A stretch of DNA of 64,000 nt from Lepidodermella squamata (taxonomy: Eukaryota > Animalia > Gastrotricha), in NCBI GenBank assembly GCA_047495785.1, contig JBLDXI010000019.1, positions 3,559,881 to 3,623,880 of the forward strand. Reading direction: 5' to 3'. Positions 40,773 to 61,900 of the stretch are shown piece after piece. The translations under genes and the position numbers were made by a program. Position 1 is the first letter of the stretch. Each line of letters opens with the position of its first letter. Under the pieces are notes generated by a model. That model saw nothing but the letters and a program-made list of their open reading frames with translations. It made no database searches and was not told where the DNA came from.

Positions 40773-40826
40773 TTCATCAAATTTGTTATTGAGCAGAATC
40801 GGTTTCGGGAGTGGGTGATATCGTGA

Positions 40827-41717
40827 CTAGTAATAGAACGGCATCCTGTGTTGCTGCGGGTGGCCGCCGTAGCCGTAGCCGTTGTTGTTGCGGTTGAAGT
40901 TGAAAGTGCCGTGTTGGTTGTTGCGGTAATCGTTGTTGCTGTTGAAGTTGTTGAAACCGCCGCGATTTCGAGGCGGCCCGCGGTATTGCTGTTGGTAAAA
41001 CCCGTTGTTGTTGTTGTTATTCACACATTGCTTCCCGATGTGGCCGTAGCCTTGACAGCGCCAGCATTGTGGTCCCGGCGGGTGAGGTTCAGGCGGGCGT
41101 GTCGTCACGGGTGGTTTGTAGTCTTCCAACGGTTCGTGTCTCGACACGAGTTGATTTGCCTCGGAGCAATATTGCTTGATGTAGGCGCTGCCTTGCATAA
41201 GATTAGCGCCGCGAATCTCTAGACCTTCGATTCCTTGGTCTTCATAGGCCTTTTTCTCGCTCGCTAGTTCTTCTTGGACAGCCTTCATATGTCCAGTTGC
41301 GGGGTGCTTCGCCTTCAGGGGTGTTTTCCAAGACTTCGCTTCAAATAGAACGCGCTCCTTTGATCTTCGAGCATCTTGAACGAATTCGATAATGATCGTA
41401 CCGTCCGCTTTTCTTTCTTTTATCATCCAGCTCGTGATTTCTTGCGGGATAAGTTTTCGCACCTCTTCTCGCCAGTTGGTTTCTGGGATGCCAGAGATTT
41501 CCAACAGATCCTGGTTAAGGATTTTTTCCACCATATGATCCGCCTTTTCTTTTTCTTTCTTGGCTTGCTTCGACTCCAGTACCGAGATGACATCGCATTG
41601 GAGGCCAGAGACCAGTCGTCTCAACTTTTCGCGTTCCTCCGGGCTGACTTCCAGCTCGTCGATTGCCTTGTTGAGAGCGATGAATTTCTCGGCCGTTCCA
41701 GTGCCAGATTGAGCCAT
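40827..41717 (-). CDS. LINE ORF1: coiled coil, CCHC zinc knuckle, Asn/Gly/Tyr-rich tail
   Basis: CWRCQGYGHIGKQC; position directly upstream of ORF2. Confidence 0.88.
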   Translation of the reverse strand: MAQSGTGTAEKFIALNKAIDELEVSPEEREKLRRLVSGLQCDVISVLESKQAKKEKEKADHMVEKILNQDLLEISGIPETNWREEVRKLIPQEITSWMIKERKADGTIIIEFVQDARRSKERVLFEAKSWKTPLKAKHPATGHMKAVQEELASEKKAYEDQGIEGLEIRGANLMQGSAYIKQYCSEANQLVSRHEPLEDYKPPVTTRPPEPHPPGPQCWRCQGYGHIGKQCVNNNNNNGFYQQQYRGPPRNRGGFNNFNSNNDYRNNQHGTFNFNRNNNGYGYGGHPQQHRMPFYY

Positions 41718-42184: not shown

Positions 42185-45100
42185 ATGAGAATCGTGGCAA
42201 TAGCTATCAGCTTATCGGCATTTTGTCATCTGGCTAACTCGCAAGTTACGTTATGCTCAAATGCTAAATTTCAGCCACAATACTCATTCAACGATACGTC
42301 ATCATTTAACGCATCTTGGATTCGTGATCATTATGCATGGTCGAATGAGACAATCTACCCCGAAATCGTGAGGTTTCGGCCATATTCTGGGTATAATACC
42401 TATTTTTTCGGCCAATGGGTGAACACGAGAGAGGTATCAGAGGGCTCAAATCACATAGTAAATGACAGCTAAACAGTTCGAAAATATTTTTAGAAATTCC
42501 TTTTGGACGATTTCTATGTGGAATTAACAATAGCCAGCGGAAACTTCAGCAATTCATCGCAGAACCCAGGAATTGGCATTTTTTTGCGCAACTCGCACGC
42601 TGCTTTATTCGGATATGAATTCAACATCGATTTCACTACTCAAATAGGTTTGCTTTCTACTTGTCATGTAGTGCCCTACGCCCTATGTATGCATAATTTC
42701 CGTCTTTATTTTTTTCGATCTTTTCTTGGAATTGATTGGTAGAAAGGTAGACTTTTTCCAGAGGGGAAAGGGGATAACGATTTCAGCTTAGCGTTGGATA
42801 TTTTTTACGTTAATTTGAACGAAAATGGTCCATGGTTTGCTTAAATTTCGGTAGATCCTGGGTTACCCAGTCCAGCATCTGAAAAGCCGAAAAAGGGGTA
42901 AAATCGAATGGTACTTAGTTGTTCAGCTTCCCCGTTTTCAACGGCCGAACAAAGCCGAGAACTTCTGTTTGAATTTTTGTTCGGCGTTGTTCGGGCATGT
43001 TCACAGCTTGCGATATAAATTCCAGAAAAAAAAATTGAACAAATCTGTGGACGCGGTGGGATTTGAACGATGATTCACACATCCCACACGCAGCCTCTTT
43101 CACCACTAAGCCGCCTGCTTCCAAGGCTTTGTCTTGGAATCAGAGACCGATTTTTTACTATTTAACTGCCTAAACGCCTATCTCGGAAACTGTGATGGCT
43201 ATGAAGATTCTGAAAAGCACATTTTCAGGCCCGCCTACGTTACGGCTCCGCGCGCGCTCCTATTGGACGGCCATTTCGCGCACACTGTTACGCAACGCAC
43301 GAGCTGACCAATAGGAGCGCGCGCAGAGCCGTAACGTAGGCGGGCCTGAAAATGTGCTTTTCAGAATCTTCATAGCCATCACAGTTTCCGAGATAGAACT
43401 AAGTACCATTCGATTTTACCCCTTTTTGAATTTTTGTTCGGTCTTGTTGTGGCATGATTACAGCTTGCGATATAAATGGGTGGGATTTGAACCATCATTC
43501 ACACATCCCACACGCAGCCTCTTTCACCACTAAGCCGCCTGCTTCCAAGGCTTTGTCTTGGAATCAGAGACCGATTTTTTACTATTTAACTGCCTAAACG
43601 CCTATCTCGGAAACTGTGATGGCTATGAAGATTCTGAAAAGCACATTTTCCGAAGTGCGAATTCTTCCGCGACGTGAACGCCTAAACATGAAGGATAGAG
43701 CAAGGCGAAGTTCATCATACGCAGAATCATTTGTAGCAATTATGTACTGGAGAAATCGCTAAATTGTTTGTCGCCAAGGATAATAACCACTTTCTTAATA
43801 TTAAATTACCAGGGATGGGCATCTTCATGTCACCCTTGAATAAGGGTGTATTCGGTGGCTGGGTTACACCAAATCCGGACTTCGGGAAATGGGGAAGTTG
43901 GCAATGGCTCAACAAGTCTTGCGGCGCCTTTGAATGGTGCTGGCCAGCATCGCAAGCTTTTGTTAATACTTACATGAGGAATCAGAAAGTCACATGGAAG
44001 CTCCGAGTGCAGTTGGCTAATCTTTCGTTAGAAGTTTGCATTTTCAACACTAATAATTGCACGCGAACCTTGAGCAACATCGCAATGCCCACATCCTTCC
44101 AATCCTACTTCGGAATTATGAACCCATACTTGGTTGTTTCCACCGCGCTTTCTAACAGCAGCTCCCCAATCGGCCTATATTCCATCAACGTTTGGGATTG
44201 TGGGAAATCTCAATCAACAACACGTCTGACGGTAAATATAAGTATTTTCAGCATAGAGTATCAATTATGTGAATCAATAAGGTTCCGAAGCGCAGACTGA
44301 TGTGCTCAATGGGGGCGTTTCGGCCTCAACTCTCATTTCAAAGCATCTCTGACTTGACGAATTATTGGAGCTACTACTCATATAGTATTCGGAATATTTC
44401 TGATGTTTTGTGGCCTCAAGAGCCATGCTCCCAACGCCTTAGACGAGAAAACGACAGGATTGGAGCGCTATGGGGCAATACAGTAACCACCTTATCTTAC
44501 ATATTACTTTCTTTTTGATGGGGTGATATGGTAAGAAATAAGCAACCCAAGAGAAACAAATTTCACTTTGATTTCTCATGCGAATCCATTGTTAAGCTGA
44601 AGTTTTCAGCGTGAACAACCATGCGACCATGCTGAGCCCGAATTTAGCATGCCCCGACCCCGCAAACGTGTCCTCGGTTGAGATACTGGAACCCCAAGAG
44701 GCAGGCGACGCGACGCCCGGCGACCGGAATTTTTGAATTTCCCCACAAACGCGTCGCCATGGAAAATATTTAAATTCAAATAATAAAAATTTGATTTAGT
44801 AATAAAATAACAGTTTAAAAATGTTTTCGAATTTTAAATTAAATTGCGTTCAAAATCAGAAAGCGCACTATTTGTTTTTTGGCATTTTTGACACTGCGGA
44901 TTTGACGGATTCGAAATCTGGCATTTTTCGCTCGAGTAGTGTGCGTGAGTGTCCGATCTGTACCATCATTGTCGATGCTTAGAGTAATAGTGCGTTGTCT
45001 ATTCCTCCAGATTTCGCGCAAAAGTCCACTGTGATACTTCGAGTGCGCGCTTGAAGTGGCCCGAACTAGGACGTTGTTTTACCTGCTGTCGTACGATTCT

Positions 45101-48047
45101 AATTCGCCGAAAATTCGCTCATTAGTGAATCCACCTTTAGTTCCGTGCAGGACGCAAACATGATTGCGCAACAAAATGAGAATTTATACCACTGTTTTGT
45201 CAATTTTGGAGGGTTCTGGAGCATGTTTTAGTGAAAAATCTCCAAAATGTTGTCGCTTTGCTCGGTTATTAGCCGAAATGACTAGTCATTTTGGCAAATA
45301 CAGCAAACAATTTTTTTCCATCCCTGGCAGCTCGGGGATCGCACCCTGAAGCCCGGCATTTGCACTCGAAGTCTTGATTTTTATCAACTTCATGGCCGAG
45401 TGCGATGATGCTCAAGGGTTACTTTCAAGTATTGCTTTGGCTCTAATAACAGAAAAAAAATTCTCTTTAGATTTAATACGGGGTTCTCACGTGAAAAATC
45501 AATGCAAAACAGTTTTACATGTACCTTAAATATTGCGCAATCAAGTTGAGAGCATGGGCAATTTAAATGTCTCCAATAATTTAAAACGTTTTACCCATTA
45601 ATTTGCCTTGCGGGTGCACCATATTCAATCGATAAAAAATGGTATGATCATTATTTTGGTATAAAAACCGCCCAAATTATGAAAACTAAACTTCTGACAT
45701 CAGTGTGCGCGGCCCTGAAATTCACAAAAATTTCGACTGGGCGTTCGTGAACAAATTCACTTTTACCCTCTGATTGCGCGCAATCATTATTGGCTTCGTG
45801 CACGGAACAAGCGGAATTGAGTCGTCTGGAATTGAGCTCGCGACCGTTTCTGCAAAAAAATGAATTTAGCGCAAAAGAAAATAACGATGAAACATGAACG
45901 TGTATTTTACACTTGTGTTTGTGAACCACACTTTAATTTCTTATCTTTTGCTGTGCTGACAGCACGCGTGATTTGAAACATTTTTATGTGTGTTTATCAC
46001 CAAGTCCATCTCCATTAGTCCCAAGGAACCGTTAGCTAGCCACAAGGAAAACTAAAGAAAAGCTTTGATGATTATCACTTGACGATCACAAAATTATTTA
46101 AGCAATTCGATATTTTAACAGCGCTTCGCATTGAATGATTTCTACTTGGAAGCTGTTATCACCGCTATCCCAACGGGCCGTGCTTATTCCTCATTTTACG
46201 GAGAAGGCATTGTCCTCACTATCACGAACAATGCCAGTATTGTCCGGCCAAATAGCACAGGGTTCTATCAAGTAAACTGGACCAACGATGCTGGGTTTGA
46301 GCCAAGCTCGGATGGTAAGAATTCAGAAAAATTTGTTCAGCCCCCTTTTCTTCCTTCTCCAACATCATGGTTTGTAGGTTTGACAGTTTACGTACCTTTC
46401 CGGCGTAGCTTTGGTGAATACTATTTCGATTCGCCAGCCGTGAATACTCGCAAAGGGGCATTCATCACAGCCAACAATAATTCTGACTACCGTTTTGGCT
46501 ATTACAACGCCACTGATGCTTGTTTCACAACGGATCAGCTTTTCGTCGAGACTTACCTTACAGCGAAATCTCTATGGCAGATACGATTGCGTGGTAGAGA
46601 GTTCGTCATGGATGTTTGCCGGTTCGGCACACCGTACTGCACTAGAATGTTCAATGTCACATTGAGTCGACAGATCGATTTCCAAGTGGAGAATATGGCC
46701 TTTGGAATTATTGGTTATGGTGATTATAACGCATTGATAGCAACAGTCGATGTTAACTCAGTCGGAGTATGGGACTGTTCGACAAACACATCATCAGCAG
46801 TTTCAGATTGGGATTATCTGCCGTTAACACCATGCTCGAACGAAAACTTGACATCAAGCACCTCAAGTTCATCAACCACTTCAACTACGCCTGCACCAAG
46901 TACTTCGACTTCAACTCCAACGTCATCCAAAACAACATCAACAGCTTCAAGTTCCACGACTACTGTTGCTGCTACTCCTTCAACGACAATTAGTTCAACT
47001 CAACCCTTGATAGCGACTACAGTTGCTTATAGAGTATCCGCATCGGTATCAAATCTTGCAACGGCAACCCGCGATTCCTTGAGCGAAGGGGATGGTTATC
47101 TGGCTAGTTGGCTCCCGCCGAAAACTGGTTTGTCAGCTGGAATATGGTCGTCTTGTTCGACAACGTGCAGCATCGGAGTTCAATGGCGACTTACTTCGAA
47201 TGGCTCGAAAGAGTACCAACAATGCAGCTCAACTACTCGATGCGCAACTGCGGCAGATGAAGCAACCAGAGGCGTTGATTTACTGTACAAACCTGTTCCG
47301 ACTATTGATGGCTACTTCAAGATCAGAGGCTCAATCAAAACCAAGGTTGCGACGAAACTGAACCCATTTTGCAGATCGAATTACGCAAAATGCTGCCCAG
47401 GCTACACGAACAACAAAACACCGACTTCAAACTACGTCGAGGCCGATGAGTTGATCGATTCGAACTACGCGAACACGTCGAAGAAAGCCGATGGTTGCTG
47501 TTTCAGAATCACGTATGTCCTCAGTAAGACCTCGACTACCAAATTCTGTGAATCCTTTGGAGTGCTGAAGATTTCTGGTCGTAAGAAGCGCGCTGCTGTT
47601 GATGATGCTTCCATCAGCCAGGAAGATTTCAGCAAAGTCATGGATGAGAGCGAGCCAGATTTGAAGAGCATGATGTTGGCTGAGTTTGGCTTTACTGGGG
47701 ATTTCAGCACATGCCTGCCAACTGATAACCCATGTGTTAGCGAGGATGTTGTACTCGCTCAGGGGCTTACAAAAGGCAATGGAACAACTGATGGCGCCGC
47801 GAATATTGGCATCATTATCGGTTCAGTGGTTGGAGGCGCCGCTGGACTGGTCGGGATCAGTGTTCTCGTCTATTGCTGCTGCTGTAGGAAGCAAAATACA
47901 CCGATGAACAAAGTTGCGGACTCCGGTGTAAGGCGATCGCCTACTGCAGCTGCTCGATCCTTGCAACATTACGAGAAGAATAATTCGTATTTGAAAGATG
48001 TCGCAGTTAAAGCCAAGGCAGCTGAGCAACTTTCTGCTAATCGCTGA
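42185..48047 (+). CDS. Type I membrane protein, paralog 3 (same architecture as paralog 2), multi-exon with repeat-expanded introns
   Basis: MRIVAIAISLSAFCHLANSQ signal peptide; exon ORFs at 42503, 43764..44300 and 44300..44518; terminal ORF 46131..48047 with WSSCSTTCSIGVQWR, GRKKRAA and a TM helix followed by YCCCC. Confidence 0.85.
43048..43650 (-). repeat. Two tRNA-related (SINE-like) segments around a ~220-bp palindrome (~43178-43396)
   Basis: Minus strand GGCTTAGTGG (A box) ... GTTCAAATCCCACC (B box) at ~43055-43112 and ~43478-43536; ~170-bp direct repeat and long inverted arms. Confidence 0.55.
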
Positions 48048-48189
48048 TGAAAAGGGCGATGCTGATGGGAAACTGACATTATCGTGAACCCCAGTCATTA
48101 ATAGCCCTATTAATAGCCCTATCGGCTATTTTTGCGCTGATAGAAAAACTAATAATATATGTTTCGTCCTGTTTCTCGTGGGGTTTTAA

Positions 48190-48685
48190 AACTTTAACTG
48201 CCAAAAATAGACAGCGAGATCCGATATTGGGGTCTAATTCCTGGGTCTGTCAAAAAGTCATTTTTTCGGGTCAACGATGCGTCGAGGGGCAAAATGCCTG
48301 ACGGCAAAGTGTAGGCCATGACCTGGCGGTTCTTTTGACACCGAATTCGGGGCCACAGGGTCTGAGCAGGTTATTGAAAATGACAGTGAAAAAACGTCGA
48401 AATTTTTGATTGGAGCCAAAAATCAGACCCAAGAATTGGACCTAATTATTAGACCCAGATTATGGCGCAACAATCGAAATTTCACTGTTTTTCAAGTTTG
48501 ATTTCTGTGCGTTCCTTGATGTCTTTGGCTCCAAATATGATGTCAAAAGAAGCGCCAGCCTACACTTTGCTGCCAGGCATTTTGCCCCTCGACGCATCGT
48601 TGACCCGAAAAAAATGACTTTTTGACAGACCCAGGAATTTGACCCAAATATCGGACCGAGCAGTCTATTTTTGGCAGTTAAAGTG
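48190..48685. mobile_element. piggyBac-like MITE with long inverted arms
   Basis: TTAA-flanked (A/C)ACTTTAACTGCCAAAAATAGAC termini; inverted similarity extends well over 100 bp. Confidence 0.8.
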
Positions 48686-50213
48686 TTAAGTACTTATAGT
48701 ACTTAAGTATGTATTTAATATAAACATTGATGTCGGATAGTCAACTTCTACCCCCTTTAGCGACCTATAAAGTTGTTGCGTAATCCATGTTTTTTATCTT
48801 TACGACGTGACATATTTTTGGAGCTGCAGTTGTTGGAGTTGGAGTTTTGAGTTTGGATGCAAACCAGATTTTTTGTTTCTTTCACTTCGTAAGATTGATG
48901 GACTAAATTCGAAGTTATGTCATCTTCAAGACAATGGCTCTCAGTGTAACTAATCATTTGTTTATAGATAAATTGTGGAATTGTTTACAGACTGACGACT
49001 GGCAACATTGGTAACCTCGAATAAAACGAATTAATTAGAAACAGCTTGCAGCTCAGCTCGAAAGGTGGAACTGTATATAGTCCCGGTTGTCATATCATCA
49101 TAGTCCATGGTACCTGAATCGGTAACATGGGACTTTGAGATTGAATAGGATTCTGTGCCGTGCTGAGAATGATGAGGGGCGCACCTCTTGACGCTTGACG
49201 CTGAACGCTTGGCGAGCAACAAGGCCGTGTCCAGGAGCGTGAGCGATAGGAATACATTTCATTGAACATTTTTACCCGGTTATAATACTTGGTCAATCTT
49301 ACCGCTCTAGTACGAGATATAGCGCCCCAATGACCAGAGTCTGATCTTGGATACTGGAGCTGCCAGGGGTGGAAAATATTCAGTATTTGCCAAAATTACT
49401 CGTGATTTCAACCGCAATTTTCAAGAACTCCACGACAACACGCTCCAAAACCACTCAAATTTGCGAAACAGTTGTGGGCACATTTTCATTTTCCTGTCCT
49501 GTTTGGCCGAGCCTGGTGGAATGGAGGACCCCCTTTCAAACTCGCACTCTGCCAATGGCAGCGGAAAGTACTCTGCACCGTGTAATGATTTCCGGACTTG
49601 CAGACAGCAGCAGAGCAGACTCGATCTTTAAATGTAGCCAATAGCTACAAAGATTGTCTCGAAGCGTACCATATTTCATATCACTGCAGATAAACAGCGA
49701 ATTTCTAGTTGAGTTTAACCCGCGTTTTATTTCGCAGAAGCACGATTTTTTTTCAAAAACCTCGTGCATATTTTCCACTGAAATTTTTTAGCGCAACCCC
49801 GCGTGCAGGCCATTCAAACTTTACAGAAGGTTGGGAGGTTGGGAAACTACTTAAACTGCAGACTAGAAAAGCCAGCATCGCCATTAGACTACAGAAATAA
49901 ATTCGATCTGCTGCTTTTCGCCCAGGAACTCAATTTGTGAAACGAAAAAGCGAAGTGATTTCCCTACGCAATATTTATACTTTAATGACGATTTCTATAA
50001 CGTGCTTGAATAGCACAGATTCAGCGACGCTGCCTCCAAAACGCATTAGCTAATGCGCACCTGGGCGACCTCCATTAGTGTCTAAAGTGGTCCGAATCCT
50101 ACGTGTGCTACGCTACCGCAATTTCACATTAACAGCTCTCAACAATTGGAGGAAGATCGCAGGGAAGAATTTTAATGCTTTGCTTCTTCGTAAGTAGTAA
50201 GGATGGGAACTTT

Positions 50214-50430
50214 GGATCAGTAATGGCAGTACGGCGATTTTTACTATAGCCGTTTGGTATAAATATACGCAATTTGGGATCAGTAATGGCAGTACGGCGA
50301 TTTTTACTATAGCCATTTGGCATAAATATACGAGCGTTGTATCAGTAATAGCACTACGGTCATTTTTACTATAACCGTTTCACATAAATATATAAGTGCG
50401 TTTTATCCGTTGCCCCATAAATGTACGCAA
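50214..50430 (+). repeat. Subterminal ~62-bp tandem repeats (2 close copies plus degenerate ones)
   Basis: GGATCAGTAATGGCAGTACGGCGATTTTTACTATAGCC.TTTGG(T/C)ATAAATATACG. Confidence 0.85.
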
Positions 50431-50558: not shown

Positions 50559-50774
50559 TCAATCTTTGTAACAGTAATTACAATTCCAATCACCACAATC
50601 TAGGCTGCATGCCTGATCTCTTGCTCGAGTTGCTATCATAAATCGTGATGCATCATTGATCAATTGTTCAACCTCCAATTGTGTGTTCAACATTTCGTTT
50701 ATAGCTGCTGTCATTGCTCGTTGCAGATGGTCAATGCTTAGCAGTGCTTGATATAAGCGTTCACGACTAAACAT
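50559..50774 (-). CDS. Small coiled-coil protein with a C-terminal 4-Cys motif
   Basis: ATG ORF ending CSLDCGDWNCNYC. Confidence 0.45.
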   Translation of the reverse strand: MFSRERLYQALLSIDHLQRAMTAAINEMLNTQLEVEQLINDASRFMIATRARDQACSLDCGDWNCNYCYKD

Positions 50775-50913
50775 AACAGAATTTATTCAAGATTTTTTAA
50801 AAAAGAACCAAACTTACATGTCTTCTGCTTCCATCAATTTTCTTAGTTTCCAAAAAGATACTTGATTAGATACAGTAATCTAAGAACTCAAGCTAGCTCA
50901 TCTTTTTTCCTGC

Positions 50914-51167
50914 TTTGTCCATTAGCTTATATAAATACACCTTACTTTCCATTAACCTTTTTTGTAAATAAACATTACTTTCTCCTATCAATCCCCCTTA
51001 ACTTTAATCTAAAATATAATAAATATTTTTTACTTTGGCCATTAGCATTTATAAATACTCCTTTCTTTCCTGATATGTCCATTAACTTGTTTTGTAAATA
51101 AACTTTACTTTCTCCTATCAATCCAACTTAACTGTAATCTAAAAAATATAAGAAACATTTTTTTACT
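50914..51167 (+). repeat. ~120-bp imperfect tandem duplication with TATAAATA in each unit, between divergent ORFs
   Basis: CCATTAGC.T.TATAAATAC...TTTTGTAAATAAAC.TTACTTTCTCCTATCAATCC occurs twice. Confidence 0.7.
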
Positions 51168-51227: not shown

Positions 51228-52034
51228 ATGATTATTGGCTATGATGAATCTTATGAAGCGATTTTCTACCGAGAAGATTTACTTTTTCCTCCGAAATCAT
51301 TAAATATATCACTAAATACCCTCTCTGGACGCATTACATTCGCTGAAGTCGCCATATTCGATTTGATTGCCAACTCGAAAGGCCAACATATTACTATCGA
51401 TCATGTTTATCTCGGCTACAAAAGAGCCGTTGCTCGTCTCTTCCCATCAACCCACGATGGCACGAATTTTCAACATTTTGCCGAATATAATTTAGCTACC
51501 TGTGCTTCCATCGTTGGGCATGATTTATGGAAGAGCATCCTAAATGATACTACCACGCTCCTTGTTCGCCAGGATGATTTATGGTCGTCCATTTGTCACT
51601 CAATTATTTTTACTGAAAGTGATTACCTTTTGGATGATTGCCTCGACGATAGCCCTAACCCTATTATTGTGTCTGGCCTGGAAGAAAGTTTCTGGTATGG
51701 CCTAACGGCACACCCTACCTACACCGAAGGCCGATATATCTACATCCAACATTTATTTTACGATTTGTTAAAAAACTTTAATGGTGTCAGCGTAAACCTG
51801 CGGCACATATTCTACCTTTTACTTCGGGCAGGTCGTAGGGTCTCAGTAGAAATGCAGAACGTCGTACCTCCACCCTATCAACACGCTCAGAAAATTCCAT
51901 GGGCATCAGTCATCGATGTTCTTAATGGTCAGCAGGAAGGTGCGAATAGTAAATGGCCGGGCATCATGCAACGCTCCATCGCACTACAACCTGTCGCTAC
52001 CGTCTTACCTTTCAACAACAGCTCTTCGACCTAA
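51228..52034 (+). CDS. Hypothetical Polinton protein (268 aa)
   Basis: ATG-initiated ORF of globular composition inside the element; no motif recognised. Confidence 0.65.
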   Translation: MIIGYDESYEAIFYREDLLFPPKSLNISLNTLSGRITFAEVAIFDLIANSKGQHITIDHVYLGYKRAVARLFPSTHDGTNFQHFAEYNLATCASIVGHDLWKSILNDTTTLLVRQDDLWSSICHSIIFTESDYLLDDCLDDSPNPIIVSGLEESFWYGLTAHPTYTEGRYIYIQHLFYDLLKNFNGVSVNLRHIFYLLLRAGRRVSVEMQNVVPPPYQHAQKIPWASVIDVLNGQQEGANSKWPGIMQRSIALQPVATVLPFNNSSST

Positions 52035-52202
52035 TTTGGTCAGTTTATTTTATTTATATAATGCCTTTGTTATTTATTCATTCCTAATCAGAAGGTTCTG
52101 GGGCTCAGCAACTCCAACCAATCACCGCGGCCGGCTTCCGTCATTCGATCATTTTTCATTTCAAACGCAAGAACTTTGAATATTATTCTTCTTACTGAAT
52201 TT

Positions 52203-53314
52203 ATGGAAGCTTTCTTCAATTCATCTCCGGCTTCTCCATTGTTTTTTTCTAACAATGATTTCGTACCAATAAACCTGAATGAACCGAATACGAGTACGTT
52301 TACCAAGGAACCTGTTGAACAAACATCAGCCTCTAGATTAGCAAAAACTGCGGTTCGTAATCAACCGAAACGCAATGCTAAACATAAAATTCAGAAAAAA
52401 GTCATAGGTACTGAGAAGAAATCAGTTGCTAAATCGGCGAAAACGCCATGCAAGGCGAAAAATAAACCAGCTGTTCCAATTACCAATCATGAGTCACGAA
52501 AGCAAGATTCTGTCGCCTCTTTTTTGGTCATGATTTGCCCTCAACCTATCGCAAAGTTCAAACAGAAACAGCTGAAATCAAGTATGTTACAAGCCTTCAA
52601 TCAGCCGCATCACAGTCGACCACGATCATAAATTTGACTATATCCTATCCTGTTGATTTAAAGCTACAATCTAGCACTGAACCTTTTTTTCTATTGAAAT
52701 CCCCACCATTAAATATGGAAGTAAATAATATACAATATGATATTGATTACTCTATTTCAAATATTATGGCTAAATCAAGGTCAAATTTTCTATTTAATTT
52801 AGATAGTCTAGCCCTAATTTTACCTTGTGCAAAATATAACCCAAAAAAAATGTCGAGTGCTTTGTTCTATAAAGTACCTGCTTTTAACGCGACGTTTTTA
52901 TTATTTTCATCCGGAGCTATAATTTGTAGTGGTACCAAAACAGCCTCGAATTGTGTTACTGCTTTTGGAGTTCTTCAAGCTACACTCAGAAAAATTGTTA
53001 ATCGACGGTTGATAATCCGTGACCCAATAATTACTAATATAGTATTGTTCTACGATTTACATAAAACTGTCAATCTTAGCCTGCTAGCTTTTCAATTTCC
53101 TAAAATATGCGTTTACCAACCAGAATTTTTTCCTGGGTTGCGTATACGTGTTTTCTCCAAAGTCAGCACTAATGAAAATGAACCAAAGTTAAATGTATCT
53201 GCCACACTGTTTCACACTGGAAAAATGATTATGAGCGGCTGTTTTTCGTTATCTCTTATAAAAATAGCATTTGTTAAATTGGCGCCTTTTTTTCTGTATA
53301 TCAAACAACAATAA
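52203..53314 (+). CDS. TATA-box-binding protein (TBP) homolog; core in ORF 52535..53314, N-terminal extension possibly joined across a 1-bp indel in the T-run at 52520-52525
   Basis: Two TBP repeats: ISNIMA...LDSLA...AKYNPKK...ATFLLFSSGAIICSGTK and ITNIV...VNLSLLA...YQPEFFPGL...ATLFHTGKMIMSG. Confidence 0.88.
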
Positions 53315-53478
53315 AATGATTTAATGAATGAGGGAAGATTAATCGCGTGCCGTCTTTTTTTAAGCTAAAATCATTATTTCTACTTTCATCATTATCTATC
53401 AATTTTCAAAATTCGCAGCAGAAATAAAAATATGGCTATCGGTAAATTTCCCCGTTTTTAAAGTCTTCGTAATTTATT

Positions 53479-53748
53479 ATGCATCAAACAACAGATATTC
53501 CGCGTGCTGTTTTACCGATCCTATTGCTGCTATCCCTGGTTACCATTTTAATCAGCTTTTTCGCTGTTATGGAAGTTCGCAATACTCAAGCCGAACTCCT
53601 TCACCTGCGGCAACTTGTCGAGTCTACTGAGCGGATGTTATATAATATAAATGATTTATTATTCCACTTAAACGGTGATTTATTTAGCCACATGGCTAAT
53701 TGTTCGGTTGTCCCTACTTGCCGTAAATTAGCTATAAAGAAGAATTAG
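53479..53748 (+). CDS. Small membrane-anchored coiled-coil protein
   Basis: Hydrophobic AVLPILLLLSLVTILISFFAVM followed by a heptad-like segment. Confidence 0.65.
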   Translation: MHQTTDIPRAVLPILLLLSLVTILISFFAVMEVRNTQAELLHLRQLVESTERMLYNINDLLFHLNGDLFSHMANCSVVPTCRKLAIKKN

Positions 53749-53751
53749 GTC

Positions 53752-54963
53752 ATGCCACGTAATAAACACAATGCGAGACGTCTAGCTGAAGGAGATGCTA
53801 AAATAAACCACAGGTCAGACTTGAAATCGTTTGTTTTGAGCTTCTATAATGATCCGAAACATGTTGGATCATTTCAAGGCCTGCGCAGATTATACTCAAC
53901 ACTTAAAGCTACATTACCCTTAGAGCTGAGAAATTCCCTTACTCATAAAAAACTAGCTGAGATTATGAGCCATGATCGAACATATTCATTATATAAACCA
54001 CTAAGTGTAAGAAACCGGAAGCAATTCATGCAATATGAAGTTTATGCTAGAAGTGACCTCTTTCTAGGTGATCTTCTTGAAGTTCAAGATTCAAGCCAAG
54101 ATAATGATGGAACCCGCTATTTACTTACAATCAAAGACTGTTTTACGCGTTATGCTTTCTGTATTCCCTTACTTAACAAAGAAGGAAATTACACTGCTGA
54201 GAAGATCAGTAATTTTTTGAGCAGCCTAACACCTGATTTGCGTTGCCGCTCTTTCACTACAGATTCTGGCGGAGAATTTATCAACAAAGAAGCTAAAAAA
54301 ATATTTAAAAAATTCAATGTTTATTATTACACTACAACCTCCATGTTCAAGTGTTCACCCATAGAAATTTTCAACCGTTGGCTTCGTAGAACTATTTCGA
54401 GGCATCAAATTGCAAATCATACGCTGCGTTACATCGATTACTTACCTTTTTTCTTAGCGTCTTACAATCAAATGAAAAATCGCAGCACTAGGGTTGCCCC
54501 GTTAGAATTATGGCTAGCTTCCCCAGAAGATCCTATAAATTTGGTTGCTTACAATAATGTTTTTGGAAAAAGAGATCAATTGATGCTTGAAAAGCGCAAG
54601 AATTTACTATACAAACCGACTTTTTCTGTCGGTGATTGTGTTAGAATTAGTCGTGTAAAGGATTTATTTCACAAAGAAGGAGATTTCATTTTTACTGAAG
54701 AATATTTTTTTATCGACCGCATAGATACTTGTACCATCCCCGACAAGTATTATCTCCGTGATACTCTGAATAAGCGTATTCAAGGTAGTTTTTACGATTG
54801 GCAGCTTCAGATAGCACATCCGCAAGAAACATATTTAATAGAAAAAGTTCTGAAGCATCGCACTATAAATGGCAAGAAACAGGCTCTTGTGAAATGGCAA
54901 AACTGGCCGATTGAAGCCGCTAGTTGGATTGATGCAAACGAGATCAAAACCTTGGCCTCATGA
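53752..54963 (+). CDS. Polinton retroviral-type (rve) integrase with a C-terminal chromodomain
   Basis: YNDP..GSF.G; DDE triad GDLLE / TDSGGEF / IEIFNR; FSVGDCVRIS; YLIEKVLKHR...LVKWQNWP...SWI. Confidence 0.95.
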   Translation: MPRNKHNARRLAEGDAKINHRSDLKSFVLSFYNDPKHVGSFQGLRRLYSTLKATLPLELRNSLTHKKLAEIMSHDRTYSLYKPLSVRNRKQFMQYEVYARSDLFLGDLLEVQDSSQDNDGTRYLLTIKDCFTRYAFCIPLLNKEGNYTAEKISNFLSSLTPDLRCRSFTTDSGGEFINKEAKKIFKKFNVYYYTTTSMFKCSPIEIFNRWLRRTISRHQIANHTLRYIDYLPFFLASYNQMKNRSTRVAPLELWLASPEDPINLVAYNNVFGKRDQLMLEKRKNLLYKPTFSVGDCVRISRVKDLFHKEGDFIFTEEYFFIDRIDTCTIPDKYYLRDTLNKRIQGSFYDWQLQIAHPQETYLIEKVLKHRTINGKKQALVKWQNWPIEAASWIDANEIKTLAS

Positions 54964-55163
54964 ATAGAGTTCCTACGACTCCACTCTTAGCTTTCCTACA
55001 AAAGCCATCTGTGCGTGTAGGGGCCTACATTTTTTTCCTTCTAATAACCGTTTGGCTTATAGAAATTTCAAACTATTTATTCAAAACTAAGCTCCCCCCT
55101 TTTGGCAACAGCGCAATCCTTACTTTAGAAAAGATAGATAAGGATAACATAACAAATGCTTAG
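54960..55163 (+). CDS. Small hydrophobic protein overlapping both neighbouring genes
   Basis: ATGA overlap with the integrase stop; TM-like VGAYIFFLLITVWLI. Confidence 0.55.
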   Translation: MNRVPTTPLLAFLQKPSVRVGAYIFFLLITVWLIEISNYLFKTKLPPFGNSAILTLEKIDKDNITNA

Positions 55164-56376
55164 CATCCAGGAGGACTTCTTTATTTATTTACCCTCGAAT
55201 GCCTCATATTCTCAACATCCGGCGAATACTCCGTCGGATTATCAAGTTGCTCTCCCTGTCCCAATTTGCGTACCCGATTGCCGTGCTTATGAAGTAGCCC
55301 TACTTGAGGCTACAATTCCTGTTAGGTGGAGTAGCATTGATCGTCATACAGTCTATGTGCTTGATTGTAACTGGCTGAAATCTTTTAAAAACGACATTAT
55401 TGCTAATTATTTAACAAATCCTGGCTCTTTGCCACATCGGATGAAAAGTTTCAACAATCCATGGGAAACTGGCTTTATTAACAAAGTAAATTTCGGAGGT
55501 GAATATTTTGCGAATATAACCAAACTAATCGATCACTTTAATGAAAAAATATCCATCTCAAGTAGTAATGGCTCTATTTTTGCTCATTATGATTCAGTCA
55601 ACAAAAAAACTAAAATTACCTGTAAATGGCCATATTCTATGTTTATACCTTCAGATTCTGCTGGCCTCTTAGGTTTTGTGTCTCCAATAGAACAGAATAC
55701 ACCGTCTGGAGTTTTCATTTTTCCCAAGGCCCCAAAAAATGACGAGCCAGAATTTAATGAAGTTTCCACTTTTGATATAAAGTCAACGTATGCCTTGGCA
55801 TATGCGTGGAATATGAGCCACCAAATTCGTGAAAATCCACACATTTTATTCAACTCAGTTGGGATTGTTAGGCTTTCTAGCAGACCAAAACTTAAGGAGG
55901 ATGCAAATAATGAGACAGCGGCGGTAGAAAATCAAGAAGGCGTAAATTCAGCACAGCACTTTGATTTTTCTGAGCAAACAGTAATCACCAAAGATAATGA
56001 TTTACCGCCTGCCTTTATTTATGCATGCTATGAAGAAAGTGCTACAGCTCAATACAACATTCAGTTGAATTATGGCAATAACTCACTGTTCATTTACTGC
56101 TCAGTTGCAGCGGATGTTTTTGTTGGAGATTGCCAAGCTAGCCTCCTTCGAATGATAACCTATTCTACGATGGCTTCTGCTACGGCAAATTCAGACTTGT
56201 CATCACATTTTACAGTGATTTATAACTCGGGCCTATATTTACCTTTAAAAGCCAATTTTATAGATTCAATTCAAGTTCAAATCCGCCGCGATAACGGGGC
56301 ATTGATCGATTTTGTGGATGGTAGCAAAGTTGTATTGCTACTTCATATTCGCCGAAAAACCGGAGCCTTATATTAA
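55156..56376 (+). CDS. Polinton minor capsid (penton) protein
   Basis: N-terminal FFIYLPSNAS...P.NT.SDY...LP...YEVALLE...P and C-terminal LFIYC.V...VGD..A.LLR...YLPL..NFIDSIQVQI...G..IDF..G.KV.L.LHIRR. Confidence 0.85.
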   Translation: MLSIQEDFFIYLPSNASYSQHPANTPSDYQVALPVPICVPDCRAYEVALLEATIPVRWSSIDRHTVYVLDCNWLKSFKNDIIANYLTNPGSLPHRMKSFNNPWETGFINKVNFGGEYFANITKLIDHFNEKISISSSNGSIFAHYDSVNKKTKITCKWPYSMFIPSDSAGLLGFVSPIEQNTPSGVFIFPKAPKNDEPEFNEVSTFDIKSTYALAYAWNMSHQIRENPHILFNSVGIVRLSSRPKLKEDANNETAAVENQEGVNSAQHFDFSEQTVITKDNDLPPAFIYACYEESATAQYNIQLNYGNNSLFIYCSVAADVFVGDCQASLLRMITYSTMASATANSDLSSHFTVIYNSGLYLPLKANFIDSIQVQIRRDNGALIDFVDGSKVVLLLHIRRKTGALY

Positions 56377-56414
56377 TATAAGTGGCTGAGTTCTAATTAT
56401 TAATATTACCGAAG

Positions 56415-56957
56415 ATGCCCCTAGCTTATTCTAACCAAAACGTTGACAAGTACCAGCAGTTTTTTCTCCGCCAACACTCCTCCCCGCTGATAGCAGGCTA
56501 TGGAGCTGGAGCGGGTGCTAACCTGGACCATTTCCGTGGGGCAACAATTCAATTTCCATATCATTATAGGGGTCAGGGAATAGGAAATATATTAGGTGCC
56601 TTTTTCAGAAATTTCTTCCCAGTAATTGCTCCGTCTATTTTTCAACAAGCATTATCTACTGGCCAAAAAATATTAGGTGATATGCAACAACCTGAGGGCG
56701 CTAGACCTAGTTTTACCGAATCCCTTAAGCGTCATGGCACTTCAGGCGCCTTAAACATGGCTAAGGATATTGCTGAAACGGCTTTGAAGCAACATCAAGG
56801 CGGTGGAGGTGGCCGTAAAAGGCGCCGTCGTCGTGGCCCTAGTAAAACTAGTAGTGTGACTGCAAAACGTAGGCGCCGTGCTTCTACTACAAAAAGAAAG
56901 GCTTATAAAAGGAAAAGACGCGCAACAACTAAATCAGTGCTATTTGAAGCGTCTTGA
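56415..56957 (+). CDS. Conserved Polinton GxG protein with an Arg/Lys-rich tail (virion core/membrane-active candidate)
   Basis: YRGQGIGNILGAFFRNFFP amphipathic segment, HQGGG, then RKRRRRR...KRKRR. Confidence 0.75.
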   Translation: MPLAYSNQNVDKYQQFFLRQHSSPLIAGYGAGAGANLDHFRGATIQFPYHYRGQGIGNILGAFFRNFFPVIAPSIFQQALSTGQKILGDMQQPEGARPSFTESLKRHGTSGALNMAKDIAETALKQHQGGGGGRKRRRRRGPSKTSSVTAKRRRRASTTKRKAYKRKRRATTKSVLFEAS

Positions 56958-56990
56958 GCCCATTGCTGCGTTTGATTCTTCAAATTTGTA

Positions 56991-58481
56991 ATGGAAGGCT
57001 TTGGAGATAATTTTGTTCACCCAGCCTCAGCCTCTTCAATAGTATTATCTTCAGATTTAGATTTATTTACTGTACCGCCTTCACAGCTTGCTGAAGAAAA
57101 CCAAATAAGTATAGATGTTTACCCAATTGCCCCTCTTAATAGTTCACCGAACCTGATTGAGTTTCAAATCGGCCCGTACAATGATTATTTGTGTCTGTCA
57201 CGCATGCAACTGATGCTCAAGTGGAAAGTAGTTAGAACCCCTTCTGAAGCTCGGAAGAAAAATGCTGGCGAAGCTGACGATGCATACAACGAGTATAAGG
57301 CTAGTCTTTCGGCTACAAATTTACAAAAAGCCCCGCTTTGTTTAGCCCACCACACAATGTTCAAAACATGCGAGATTTCACTAAATGGGCAACTTTTAAG
57401 TGAACAAAATTCATTATACGCTTATCGGGCCTATATTTCAACGCTTTTGTCTCATAATACTGATGCAAAAAACACGATATTACAGACACAATTTTGGTAT
57501 CCTGATACAGCTAAAAAACTGGATAATTTTGACAATTCAAACGAGGGATTTAAAAAACGGTTGGAAATTGTTCAGGGCGGGAAATCTGTGTGCACCCTGG
57601 GACGCCTGTTTGCAGATCCTATGCTGTGTAATAGGCTACTTCTACCTAATGTTGAAGTCCGCATCAAGCTCTATAGGGCATCTAACAATTTTGCTTTGGT
57701 TGGGCCGAGCACAGCTGATCCTCACTCAATCGTCATTGAATCTGCAAAAATTATTGCCCGGGCTGTTGTTGTGTCGCCGGACATAGTGATTGCTCATACG
57801 CGTGCGCTGGAAAAAACTAACGCCAAATATCCTATAATGAGAGTTCGAACAAGGCTTTTTCACATACCAAGTAGTGTTTTGAGTTACAGTGTAAGTTTGC
57901 TCATCGCGCGTTTCTAAGTCAATTTTTAAAACTCTAATGGTTTAACAGATACCACAATGTATTAATGGTAAGCTTCCAAGGCGTATGTTTTTCTGTTTTT
58001 TTTGAAGATTCCGCCCTGAATGGAACGGCGGGTAAAAATCCATTGAATGCATTACACAGCCAGCTATCCCGAATATCGATTTATTTGGGCAATGAACTAC
58101 ATCACTCAACAGCTCCCTTGAAATGGATTTTGCAAATGGAGATGTCACCAGAGTCTATTTGGAGCTTCTCAATGCTATCAACCCAGATAACCCTTTCAAG
58201 GCATCTACGTTAACTATGGATCAGTTTATTAATGGTTTCACAATTTTTGGTTTCGATTTATCGCGCAACTCCTCGTTGCAAAATTACTCAGTTATACGCA
58301 CAGGTACCTGCAGAGTAGAGTTGAGTTTTGCTGTTCAAACAACAATTGTTACTCAGCTGTTAGTATTAACTGAAACTGATTCAGTTTTTGAGGTATCATC
58401 TTTTTTCATAAAATTAAAATTGCCTTAAAATTCAAATTTTTTAAGATCACACGAACGCGTGACGTAATTGTTGATTCTTAA
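56991..58481 (+). CDS. Polinton major capsid protein (double jelly-roll); predicted exons 56991-57890, 57949-58392, 58446-58481; two 1-bp indels in exon 2 of this copy
   Basis: SDLDLFTVPPSQ, IEF, YAYRAYI.TLL, RLLLPNVEVRIKL.R, AKYPI.RV, GKLPRR, ALNG...KNPLN, FGFDLS, VEL.FA. Confidence 0.9.
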
Positions 58482-58491
58482 GCAGTTTTTC

Positions 58492-58923
58492 ATGTACAAC
58501 AATGAATTGGAAGATTTCATCCGGATTGATCCAGTACTAAAAAAGTTTGACATTTTTGTTGTAGCCGCTGATCAGCTACCACAGCAGCTTCCTATTGTGA
58601 AAAATAATCCACAATTGATTATCTGTAACACAGGAAATGTATACAATTCTACAGGAAAGCACTGGGTCACACTGTTTGTTCACAGCGCACAGCATCCTGA
58701 TGAGCCCTGTGAGTTTTTCGATAGCCTTAACCTTTCCCCTTCCTATCATAACCTCTATATCGACAACTTTTTGAAAGCGAATAGCCAAACAGAAGTGCCG
58801 TACATTCATTGCAATAGGTCTTACCAGCATGTTTTTTCACAAATCTGCGGCTTATGGGCTCTATATTACAGCATGCTTCGAGCGCGAGGTAAAGACATGC
58901 ACCAAATTTTGAGGCATTTTTAA
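58492..58923 (+). CDS. Adenain-like (C5) cysteine protease, probably C-terminally truncated at the fold-back junction
   Basis: ICNT...GKHWV, EFFDS and YQ...SQICG give the His-Asp-(Gln)-Cys order of adenoviral proteases. Confidence 0.9.
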   Translation: MYNNELEDFIRIDPVLKKFDIFVVAADQLPQQLPIVKNNPQLIICNTGNVYNSTGKHWVTLFVHSAQHPDEPCEFFDSLNLSPSYHNLYIDNFLKANSQTEVPYIHCNRSYQHVFSQICGLWALYYSMLRARGKDMHQILRHF

Positions 58924-61900
58924 TTTTATGAAAAAAGATGATACCTCAAAAACTGAATCAGTTTCAGTTAATACTAACAGCTGAGTAACAATTGTTGTTT
59001 GAACAGCAAAACTCAACTCTACTCTGCAGGTACCTGTGCGTATAACTGAGTAATTTTGCAACGAGGAGTTGCGCGATAAATCGAAACCAAAAATTGTGAA
59101 ACCATTAATAAACTGATCCATAGTTAACGTAGATGCCTTGAAAGGGTTATCTGGGTTGATAGCATTGAGAAGCTCCAAATAGACTCTGGTGACATCTCCA
59201 TTTGCAAAATCCATTTCCAAGGGAGCTGTTGAGTGATGTAGTTCATTGCCCAAATAAATCGATATTCGGGATAGCTGGCTGTGTAATGCATTCAATGGAT
59301 TTTTACCCGCCGTTCCATTCAGGGCGGAATCTTCAAAAAAACAGAAAAACATACGCCTTGGAAGCTTACCATTAATACATTGTGGTATCTGTTAAACCAT
59401 TAGAGTTTTAAAAATTGACTTAGAAACGCGCGATGAGCAAACTTACACTGTAACTCAAAACACTACTTGGTATGTGAAAAAGCCTTGTTCGAACTCTCAT
59501 TATAGGATATTTGGCGTTAGTTTTTTCCAGCGCACGCGTATGAGCAATCACTATGTCCGGCGACACAACAACAGCCCGGGCAATAATTTTTGCAGATTCA
59601 ATGACGATTGAGTGAGGATCAGCTGTGCTCGGCCCAACCAAAGCAAAATTGTTAGATGCCCTATAGAGCTTGATGCGGACTTCAACATTAGGTAGAAGTA
59701 GCCTATTACACAGCATAGGATCTGCAAACAGGCGTCCCAGGGTGCACACAGATTTCCCGCCCTGAACAATTTCCAACCGTTTTTTAATCCCTCGTTTGAA
59801 TTGTCAAAATTATCCAGTTTTTTAGCTGTATCAGGATACCAAAATTGTGTCTGTAATATCGTGTTTTTTGCATCAGTATTATGAGACAAAAGCGTTGAAA
59901 TATAGGCCCGATAAGCGTATAATGAATTTTGTTCACTTAAAAGTTGCCCATTTAGTGAAATCTCGCATGTTTTGAACATTGTGTGGTGGGCTAAACAAAG
60001 CGGGGCTTTTTGTAAATTTGTAGCCGAAAGACTAGCCTTATACTCGTTGTATGCATCGTCAGCTTCGCCAGCATTTTTCTTCCGAGCTTCAGAAGGGGTT
60101 CTAACTACTTTCCACTTGAGCATCAGTTGCATGCGTGACAGACACAAATAATCATTGTACGGGCCGATTTGAAACTCAATCAGGTTCGGTGAACTATTAA
60201 GAGGGGCAATTGGGTAAACATCTATACTTATTTGGTTTTCTTCAGCAAGCTGTGAAGGCGGTACAGTAAATAAATCTAAATCTGAAGATAATACTATTGA
60301 AGAGGCTGAGGCTGGGTGAACAAAATTATCTCCAAAGCCTTCCATTACAAATTTGAAGAATCAAACGCAGCAATGGGCTCAAGACGCTTCAAATAGCACT
60401 GATTTAGTTGTTGCGCGTCTTTTCCTTTATAAGCCTTTCTTTTTGTAGTAGAAGCACGGCGCCTACGTTTTGCAGTCACACTACTAGTTTTACTAGGGCC
60501 ACGACGACGGCGCCTTTTACGGCCACCTCCACCGCCTTGATGTTGCTTCAAAGCCGTTTCAGCAATATCCTTAGCCATGTTAAGGCGCCTGAAGTGCCAT
60601 GACGCTTAAGGGATTCGGTAAAACTAGGTCTAGCGCCCTCAGGTTGTTGCATATCACCTAATATTTTTTGGCCAGTAGATAATGCTTGTTGAAAAATAGA
60701 CGGAGCAATTACTGGGAAGAAATTTCTGAAAAAGGCACCTAATATATTTCCTATTCCCTGACCCCTATAATGATATGGAAATTGAATTGTTGCCCCACGG
60801 AAATGGTCCAGGTTAGCACCCGCTCCAGCTCCATAGCCTGCTATCAGCGGGGAGGAGTGTTGGCGGAGAAAAAACTGCTGGTACTTGTCAACGTTTTGGT
60901 TAGAATAAGCTAGGGGCATCTTCGGTAATATTAATAATTAGAACTCAGCCACTTATATTAATATAAGGCTCCGGTTTTTCGGCGAATATGAAGTAGCAAT
61001 ACAACTTTGCTACCATCCACAAAATCGATCAATGCCCCGTTATCGCGGCGGATTTGAACTTGAATTGAATCTATAAAATTGGCTTTTAAAGGTAAATATA
61101 GGCCCGAGTTATAAATCACTGTAAAATGTGATGACAAGTCTGAATTTGCCGTAGCAGAAGCCATCGTAGAATAGGTTATCATTCGAAGGAGGCTAGCTTG
61201 GCAATCTCCAACAAAAACATCCGCTGCAACTGAGCAGTAAATGAACAGTGAGTTATTGCCATAATTCAACTGAATGTTGTATTGAGCTGTAGCACTTTCT
61301 TCATAGCATGCATAAATAAAGGCAGGCGGTAAATCATTATCTTTGGTGATTACTGTTTGCTCAGAAAAATCAAAGTGCTGTGCTGAATTTACGCCTTCTT
61401 GATTTTCTACCGCCGCTGTCTCATTATTTGCATCCTCCTTAAGTTTTGGTCTGCTAGAAAGCCTAACAATCCCAACTGAGTTGAATAAAATGTGTGGATT
61501 TTCACGAATTTGGTGGCTCATATTCCACGCATATGCCAAGGCATACGTTGACTTTATATCAAAAGTGGAAACTTCATTAAATTCTGGCTCGTCATTTTTT
61601 GGGGCCTTGGGAAAAATGAAAACTCCAGACGGTGTATTCTGTTCTATGGAGACACAAAACCTAAGAGGCCAGCAGAATCTGAAGGTATAAACATAGAATA
61701 TGGCCATTTACAGGTAATTTTAGTTTTTTTGTTGACTGAATCATAATGAGCAAAAATAGAGCCATTACTACTTGAGATGGATATTTTTTCATTAAAGTGA
61801 TCGATTAGTTTGGTTATATTCGCAAAATATTCACCTCCGAAATTTACTTTGTTAATAAAGCCAGTTTCCCATGGATTGTTGAAACTTTTCATCCGATGTG

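Follow-up and report, generated by a model that had tools for sequence, protein, structure and literature searches.

A divergent TATA-binding protein gene carried by a Polinton of the gastrotrich Lepidodermella squamata and a candidate promoter box before the structural genes of the element

The present analysis concerns a stretch of 64,000 nucleotides from the gastrotrich Lepidodermella squamata (assembly GCA_047495785.1, contig JBLDXI010000019.1, positions 3,559,881 to 3,623,880 of the forward strand), which is called the window in the following and to whose first letter all positions refer. It contains a Polinton/Maverick element that starts with AGTAGT at 50193 and carries a divergent gene for a TATA-binding protein (TBP) within its left end, followed by genes for an integrase, virion proteins and a protease (Table 1). 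The structure of the element was read from contigs of the public sequencing runs X1 to X4, of which X1 may underlie the window itself. An earlier note on this DNA had placed an intronless two-repeat TBP core between a candidate AGTAGT terminus and the integrase gene, co-oriented with the capsid cluster. Both the position and the orientation were borne out, since the terminus lies upstream of the TBP gene and the latter shares its strand with the integrase, penton, major capsid and protease genes. The span given there, 52203-53314, has to be corrected, because it comprises two open reading frames (ORFs) in different frames, of which only 52715-53314, an intact ORF of 199 amino acids (aa), encodes TBP. 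Likewise, the lack of introns is true for the TBP ORF but not for the adjoining element genes, which hold introns of 51-53 nt.

An assembly frameshift that splits 52203-53314 was considered and rejected, because an X1 contig (52065-52654) and an X2 contig (52278-53440) are identical to the window. A single, N-terminally extended TBP starting at 52203 was rejected as well, since neither run shows an indel and no RNA joint fuses the ORFs. Four candidate GT-AG introns could fuse the two frames, however, their A+T content is 0.57-0.61 compared to 0.70-0.83 in the four observed introns, and none of them is 51-53 nt long. Upstream of its ATG, the TBP frame is open for another 74 codons without Met (52493-52714), overlapping the upstream ORF.

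The left boundary is defined by two loose ends in X1 at exactly 50192, where a different flank is joined to the element start in one case and the same flank runs into other sequence in the other. The second of these is read as an apparent empty allele, and given this allele the insertion at 50193 may be polymorphic. The terminal repeat was estimated at about 122 bp (50193-50314), because a second high-depth X1 contig (1370 nt, depth 2186) contains 50250-50314 and diverges thereafter; the same loose end occurs in X2. This length, which was deduced from the left end only with the opposite end outside the window, is within the 100-1500 bp given for Polinton/Maverick terminal inverted repeats in the text of PMC10748475. 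In X1, the contigs over the TBP ORF have depths of 1678 and 1651, very similar to those with the integrase, penton and capsid genes (1631-1740), while the host flank has 78-79 and the junction contig at 50192 has 53. Contig depth is not an exact copy number, but the approximately 21-fold step occurs at the terminus, and TBP is therefore inside the amplified unit. Moreover, X1 contigs tile the element from the terminal repeat through TBP to the integrase at one depth. The earlier note had named three observations that would speak against a TBP of the element, namely a boundary downstream of 53314, a single-copy host gene, and further copies without TBP. As far as these could be checked, none of them held: the element starts at 50193, the TBP contigs have element depth and hence do not represent a single-copy gene, and the protein stands apart from cellular TBPs in three trees (see below). 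Among the X1 records 68 of 83 are at least 99% alike, without any variant row within the TBP ORF, which points to a recent expansion or to copies outside the chromosomes.

The ORF matches the Pfam family TBP (PF00352) with 86.5 bits at a cut-off of 22.9 in two stretches, and all 35 distinct matches in a PDB sequence search with the 199-aa protein are TBPs or TBP fusions. An AlphaFold model based on a 23-sequence alignment shows the saddle (predicted local distance difference test, pLDDT, 93.3; predicted template modelling score, pTM, 0.85), which resembles the human (1cdw) and yeast (1ytb) TBPs with a template modelling (TM) score of about 0.8 (TMq 0.80 to 1cdw) and a root-mean-square deviation of about 2.5 Å. 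The single-sequence model reached a pLDDT of only 38, hence the predicted fold leans on the alignment. The Pfam match and the predicted saddle thus verify the two-repeat core. Upstream of the core only about 10 residues are present, i.e. a long N-terminal tail is lacking, and repeat 2 has an insertion of about 10 residues. The unusual divergence claimed before was also found: the identities of the protein to six cellular TBP-family cores amount to 26-30%, whereas these cores share 68-80% with one another.

In agreement with the residues read by eye in the earlier note, both central Asn (N16 and N108) and three of the four intercalating Phe (F64, F139 and F166) are retained, while the Phe of YNPKRF is replaced by M46, such that the canonical set of four Phe of a TATA-binding TBP is incomplete. 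Further retained residues of the DNA face are T60, L62, V110, P140 and R145. Because all these residues are kept despite the low overall identity, the predicted DNA-binding concave face appears to be spared by sequence change. The specificity pocket is different. Mutation of I194, V203 and L205 in the yeast variant TBPm3 alters TATA specificity (PMC1636458), and the equivalent positions all differ in the element TBP (R143, S162 and T164). For S162 and T164 the register was counted back gap-free from F166, and the yeast numbering was transferred via a fungal TBP. The stirrup of TBP binds TFIIB, and this region is largely retained in the element protein (YQPEFFPG). In helix 2, described as contact surface for TFIIA and NC2 (PMC2577341), one of the five basic residues of the fungal TBP is left.

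TBP genes were also found in other Polintons. Scanning metagenomes with a compact-TBP alignment led from 94 stretches to 13 loci, two of which (L013 and L016) are Polintons with TBP. L013 contains an A32 ATPase, an integrase, a capsid module, Peptidase_C5, TBP and pPolB, whereas in L016 TBP stands beside an ATPase, an integrase and a capsid module. L013 additionally has a PC4 coactivator-like gene (7964-8497, E 6.6e-5) and a BIR-like gene (1118-1405, E 0.0016), both below the Pfam cut-off. The two TBPs are 46% identical and were used to seed a family that we label HCQ, comprising 72 proteins among the 120 matches listed; two plant proteins in the same rank range and lower-ranked cellular matches were left out, and the genomic context is known for L013 and L016. 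At the positions equivalent to the last two of TBPm3, 78% of the rows of this family have Thr and 97% have Val, respectively, i.e. the same substitutions as in TBPm3. Three tardigrade proteins annotated as TBP-like or hypothetical (P0327, P0345 and P0395) belong to the HCQ family and may be element genes. The element TBP lacks the HCQxYxNGK signature, and with the HCQ profile it scores 73 bits, compared to 148 for a rat TBP-family protein and 179-244 for three members used to build the profile. It also falls outside the HCQ clade (99% support) on a long branch and is not counted as a member. The score of 124 bits with a 'compact' profile was rejected as biased, since its rows had been picked from the query's own matches.

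The branch of the element TBP measures 1.5-2.1 substitutions per site in three trees, none of which groups it with cellular TBPs. The separation from cellular TBPs is hence seen in the trees but not enforced by the approximately unbiased (AU) tests, in which neither the grouping with cellular TBPs (p 0.31) nor a sister position to the HCQ clade (p 0.42) was rejected; these tests used a 28-row quick LG+G tree and carry a long-branch warning. Trees and AU tests fit one TBP capture by Polintons as well as two. In the search for close relatives one of 192 candidates passed (P0001, 30% identity), and the best 150 of 1196 representatives are 25-40% identical to the element TBP. Among viral contigs, none passed with the TBP query (0/2), the capsid query (0/2) or the HCQ alignment (0/58), while 4 of 22 and 5 of 17 passed with broad TBP alignments, none of them with Polinton genes.

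Candidate target sites were searched in the DNA before the structural genes. On the plus strand of the element, G(G/C)CTTATA occurs at three sites, all 50-102 nt ahead of structural genes, and it is the only 8-mer pattern common to the three 120-nt windows. Among 5000 random window triples, 8 had a common 8-mer containing TATA, and so did 2 of 5000 dinucleotide shuffles. A window-wide count of GSCTTATA (11 matches, 0/100 shuffles) was set aside, because 4 mirror copies from the fold-back raise it. A different box, TATTWAAR, lies on the strand of the packaging/capsid module in L013 (5/5) and L016 (4/4), and these counts were reached in 3 of 200 and 0 of 200 shuffles, respectively; the only plus-strand TATTWAAR of the present element is inside the integrase gene. 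The sequence TATAAATA is found at 50258, 50930 and 51050, and the 62-nt subterminal repeats contain it or a close variant.

Collectively, the balance is tipped, if not by much, towards the view that the element TBP is a promoter factor of the element's own structural genes, which would act via G(G/C)CTTATA as a late-gene switch in the manner of a viral TBP (vTBP). In such a scheme, the host TBP would at first read TATAAATA, the ordinary type of box present at the left end of the element. The element TBP would then be made and might bend the variant box with its retained Phe pair F139 and F166, being predicted to bind G(G/C)CTTATA before the penton, pVII/X-like and major capsid genes. Host TFIIB would likely be recruited through the largely retained stirrup, and host RNA polymerase II would thereby be brought to the structural-gene promoters. 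With most basic residues of helix 2 lost, the element TBP could escape control of the TFIIA/NC2 type. The result would be an early-to-late switch resembling that of beta- and gamma-herpesviruses. The suggestion of the earlier note that the element TBP drives its own genes thus gains indirect support from the common box, the binding itself being a prediction. One X2 contig (52278-53440) runs unspliced across the whole TBP ORF and then into the spliced downstream gene, which fits transcription of TBP.

Several points weigh against this interpretation. Any common 8-mer, i.e. without the TATA condition, was found in 480 of 5000 triples and 425 of 5000 shuffles. Both boxes, G(G/C)CTTATA and TATTWAAR, had been chosen by eye before counting, and the three genes were picked post hoc among about six candidates, which weakens the chance value of 0.002 up to twenty-fold. 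Neither the protease gene nor the integrase gene has a G(G/C)CTTATA box, and further sites exist: the capsid gene contains one on the minus strand, and host DNA contains three. The distances of the boxes refer to ATGs and not to transcription starts, and CTTATA(A/G/T)A is near enough to TATA that the host TBP could read it. The covariation of TBP type with box rests on two types. Regarding the protein, several phosphate-binding basic residues are lost (N58 and A68), and together with the exchange of Phe for Met this may render the binding to TATA DNA weak. Finally, the assignment of X2 as an RNA run is a guess, and its contigs give no strand, start or level.

The same observations have to be weighed under other explanations. 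The element TBP might be a general supplement that reads ordinary TATA boxes, TATAAATA included, where host TBP is limiting, with no special late box. The three TATAAATA sites, the TATA within the candidate box and the post hoc nature of the statistics would fit such a role; we regard it as unlikely in view of the change at all three TBPm3 specificity positions and the strand-biased variant boxes that recur in L013 and L016. It is also rather improbable that the protein serves as decoy or competitor, which would bind host TFIIB or TATA boxes and dampen the transcription of host genes, such as stress or silencing genes, while activating no element gene. Such a decoy would leave the element-specific boxes before structural genes here, in L013 and in L016 unexplained, and both Asn and three Phe of the DNA face are kept; on the other hand, the TFIIB stirrup is the best-retained motif, whereas the DNA contacts lack one Phe and several basic residues. 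Since the 62-nt subterminal repeats carry TATAAATA-like sites, a non-transcriptional binder could be imagined that bends AT-rich sites of the terminal repeat during protein-primed replication, integration or packaging. We give it a slim chance, as the retained stirrup would make sense only for a transcription partner and the boxes stand before genes.

Two explanations deny the protein any function in the element. A captured host TBP-family gene that drifts as a passenger could show such a very long branch, and the copies are too alike for a ratio of nonsynonymous to synonymous changes, with no variant in the ORF. However, an open frame of 199 codons and a saddle retained at 26-30% identity need long purifying selection, TBP genes recur in other Polintons, and the GC content at third codon positions of the TBP ORF (0.245) is closer to that of the element genes (0.32-0.42) than to that of host ORFs (0.45-0.50), all of which makes the passenger quite improbable. 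Even less credit, close to none, is given to the possibility that the ORF is a TBP/TRF gene of the host itself or results from a chimeric assembly: the contigs that tile terminal repeat, TBP and integrase at one depth, about 21-fold above the host flank, contradict it, even though a probable fold-back artefact is located nearby in the contig and a cellular grouping was not rejected by the AU test.

TBPs of viruses are already known; what seems new here is the divergent type, which stands apart from the common compact TBPs of Polintons and has its own candidate box. A Polinton TBP as such has precedents, since a TBP gene was already labelled in MELD viruses and is present in L013 and L016. With cellular TBPs (PF00352; 1cdw, 1ytb) the element TBP shares the two-repeat saddle, both Asn, three of four Phe and the stirrup motif, but differs by the exchange of Phe for Met, the insertion in repeat 2, the few basic residues in helix 2 and the location in a mobile element. 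The HCQ TBPs are likewise compact, their genes neighbour those for integrase, capsid and ATPase (in L013 also pPolB), and they too have the short strand ahead of FH(T/S)GK as well as an altered specificity pocket; the element TBP differs by the absence of HCQxYxNGK and by G(G/C)CTTATA instead of TATTWAAR as candidate box. TRF2/TBPL1, which lacks three of the four intercalating Phe, is also a divergent basal factor of the TBP fold, whereas the element TBP retains three of them. TRF2 does not bind TATA promoters according to PMC4422821. A search of BFVD gave 61 matches to the element TBP at E <= 0.001, the best being a TBP of Heterosigma akashiwo virus. Many TBP-bearing Nucleocytoviricota and mirusvirus-like viruses supply their own RNA polymerase, while the portion of the element within the window shows no RNA polymerase gene. 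TBP genes were noted in mirusvirus-like elements of Cymbomonas (PMC10675990).

The closest functional parallel is provided by the TBP mimics of beta- and gamma-herpesviruses, KSHV ORF24 and HCMV UL87, which bring host RNA polymerase II to late genes via a TATT box (PMC7498053, PMC8360532). A virally encoded TBP-fold protein, host polymerase II, late structural genes and a variant TATA box are the features in common, as proposed for the element TBP. In contrast, the herpesviral proteins are large and multidomain, work in a six-protein complex and use an N-terminal domain for binding the C-terminal domain (CTD) of polymerase II, whereas the element TBP is a bare core of 199 aa with clear similarity to cellular TBPs and without a CTD-binding domain. 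Hence, it may act like a herpesvirus vTBP but outside the ORF24/UL87 family. MELD viruses with adintovirus-like PolB also combine a TBP-like gene with a Polinton-like element (Starrett et al. 2021, PMC8502044). There, 'TBP' appears as a gene label in the legend of Fig. 5, in the section on non-animal datasets, with no function or promoter proposed in the parts of the paper considered here, and neither 'TBP' nor 'TATA' occurs in one of its supplements. TBP, TATA and TFIID have zero mentions in the main texts of PMC10748475, PMC11131425 and bioRxiv 2022.07.12.499685 and in the supplements of the first two. A functional account of a Polinton TBP was not found in the literature searched, which did not cover figures, Repbase, bioRxiv supplements and subscription journals, and the same search gave nothing on the timing of capsid-gene expression in Polintons.

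It is conceivable, with somewhat less than an even chance, that Polintons use a one-protein early-to-late switch in which a bare TBP core with a re-tuned pocket reads a TATA variant specific to the lineage ahead of the virion genes, with at least two protein-box pairs (HCQ-type with TATT(T/A)AA and the present type with G(G/C)CTTATA) that possibly go back to separate captures. If true, these proteins would be natural TBPs of altered specificity and would form the smallest late-gene system of viral type to rely on host polymerase II; owing to its changed pocket, the element TBP would parallel in nature what was engineered in yeast TBPm3. An element that encodes its own TBP and carries a matching box would offer a concrete, testable mechanism and would support a viral life cycle of Polintons. 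The present copy is suited for such tests, because it is apparently young, multi-copy and spliced in public runs.

Table 1. Features of the Polinton in the window (positions count from the first letter of the window)
Feature	Positions	Strand	Basis or remark
Left terminal inverted repeat, starts AGTAGT	50193-50314	+	X1 loose ends and diverging high-depth contig
Three 62-nt subterminal repeats; first with TATAAATA at 50258	50208-50394	+	Repeat analysis
Small gene, 51-nt intron 50767-50817	50559-50830	-	ORF; joint in one X3 contig, depth 5; start not fixed
Duplicated unit of about 120-130 nt, TATAAATA at 50930 and 51050; candidate divergent promoter	50913-51163		Promoter role inferred
268-aa ORF	51228-52034	+	No Pfam family; spliced, poly(A) in run contigs
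Basic 142-aa ORF, distinct from TBP	52203-52631	+	Coding status uncertain; no Pfam family above cut-off
TBP gene, 199 aa	52715-53314	+	Pfam TBP
Small spliced gene, 53-nt intron 53442-53494	53432-53748	+	Joint in X2 and X3
Retroviral-type integrase with chromodomain	53752-54963	+	Pfam Chromo 29.6 bits, above cut-off
G(G/C)CTTATA box, 102 nt before penton ATG	55054-55061	+	Pattern search
Penton (minor capsid)-like ORF	55156-56376	+	tblastn to post-integrase gene: E 3e-10 (L016), 1e-6 (L013)
G(G/C)CTTATA box, 50 nt before pVII/X-like ATG	56365-56372	+	Pattern search
Arg/Gly-rich core protein, pVII/pX-like	56415-56957	+	Translation; no Pfam match
G(G/C)CTTATA box, 91 nt before major capsid ATG	56900-56907	+	Pattern search
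Major capsid protein gene, last exon after 53-nt intron 58393-58445	56991-58480	+	Homology to L013
Adenain-like protease	58492-58923	+	29% identity, E 1e-13 to L013 Peptidase_C5; enters fold-back junction
Inverted copy of 53345-58432	58905-63988	-	99.76% over 5091 nt, 10 gap openings, 2 mismatches

The remaining genes are in line with the assignment to Polintons. The integrase is of the retroviral-like type, with D107/D171/E206 motifs, a Pfam rve match below the cut-off (E 1.7e-5) and similarity to the L013 integrase (E 2e-28). The capsid and adenain genes are recognized by homology to the module of L013 and L016, in which the L013 protease is a Pfam Peptidase_C5. The penton-like ORF has no Pfam match, and its label, which follows the usual gene order of Polintons, is as tentative as that of the pVII/pX-like protein. 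The gene presumed from its place in that order to encode the major capsid protein is similar to the L013 gene between pX and protease (E 1e-15 and 2e-7), and a PDB sequence search with a piece of it gave no match. Its ORF is broken in the window, and a full-depth X1 contig differs there by two single-base indels, therefore the breaks look like assembly errors. The protease shows H57, D78 and C119 motifs. A tblastn search with pPolB and ATPase of L013 found neither gene in the window, the best match (E 0.5) falling in host DNA; both may lie in the missing part, as the element is cut at about 58905 by a fold-back. The arms of this 5.1-kb inverted duplication differ by single-base indels, and the inverted match at the junction is imperfect; it is probably an amplification or long-read fold-back artefact. 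Among the small genes, an Atlas search with the 268-aa ORF gave only matches below 0.9, and the product of the gene between TBP and integrase has a hydrophobic stretch, judged by eye a likely membrane anchor, followed by a likely helical region. It might be guessed to be a membrane or fusion-type accessory protein.

GT-AG joints were seen in X2, X3 and X4 and are absent from X1. The intron at 52039-52091 (53 nt) follows the stop codon of the 268-aa ORF, with the joint in X2, X3 and X4 and a poly(A) end at 52288 in X2, and the capsid-gene intron was taken from an X2 contig; two further introns are listed in Table 1, the 51-nt one on the minus strand. The near-constant length of these spliceosomal introns is striking, as is the location of one behind a stop codon and of another at the 3' end of the capsid gene. 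X3 has no contig over the TBP ORF, X2 almost none over integrase and penton, and a further run, X5, yielded no contig; these gaps were not used as evidence.

Other features were observed elsewhere in the window. A LINE-like retrotransposon (37551-41717, minus strand) has a 296-aa ORF with a weak zinc-knuckle match and an 889-aa reverse transcriptase ORF. Long paralogous host ORFs are found at 23565-24860, 33507-34940 and 46608-48047; two of them were scanned, showed weak TSP1-like matches and are likely single-pass membrane proteins. Among acidic-repeat ORFs, a DUF1258-like ORF (13497-14408, minus strand; E 2.6e-5, below the cut-off) is possibly part of a transposon. Finally, fold-back elements resembling miniature inverted-repeat transposable elements are present at 42890-43650 and 48186-48689, the latter with a very high summed depth in X1.
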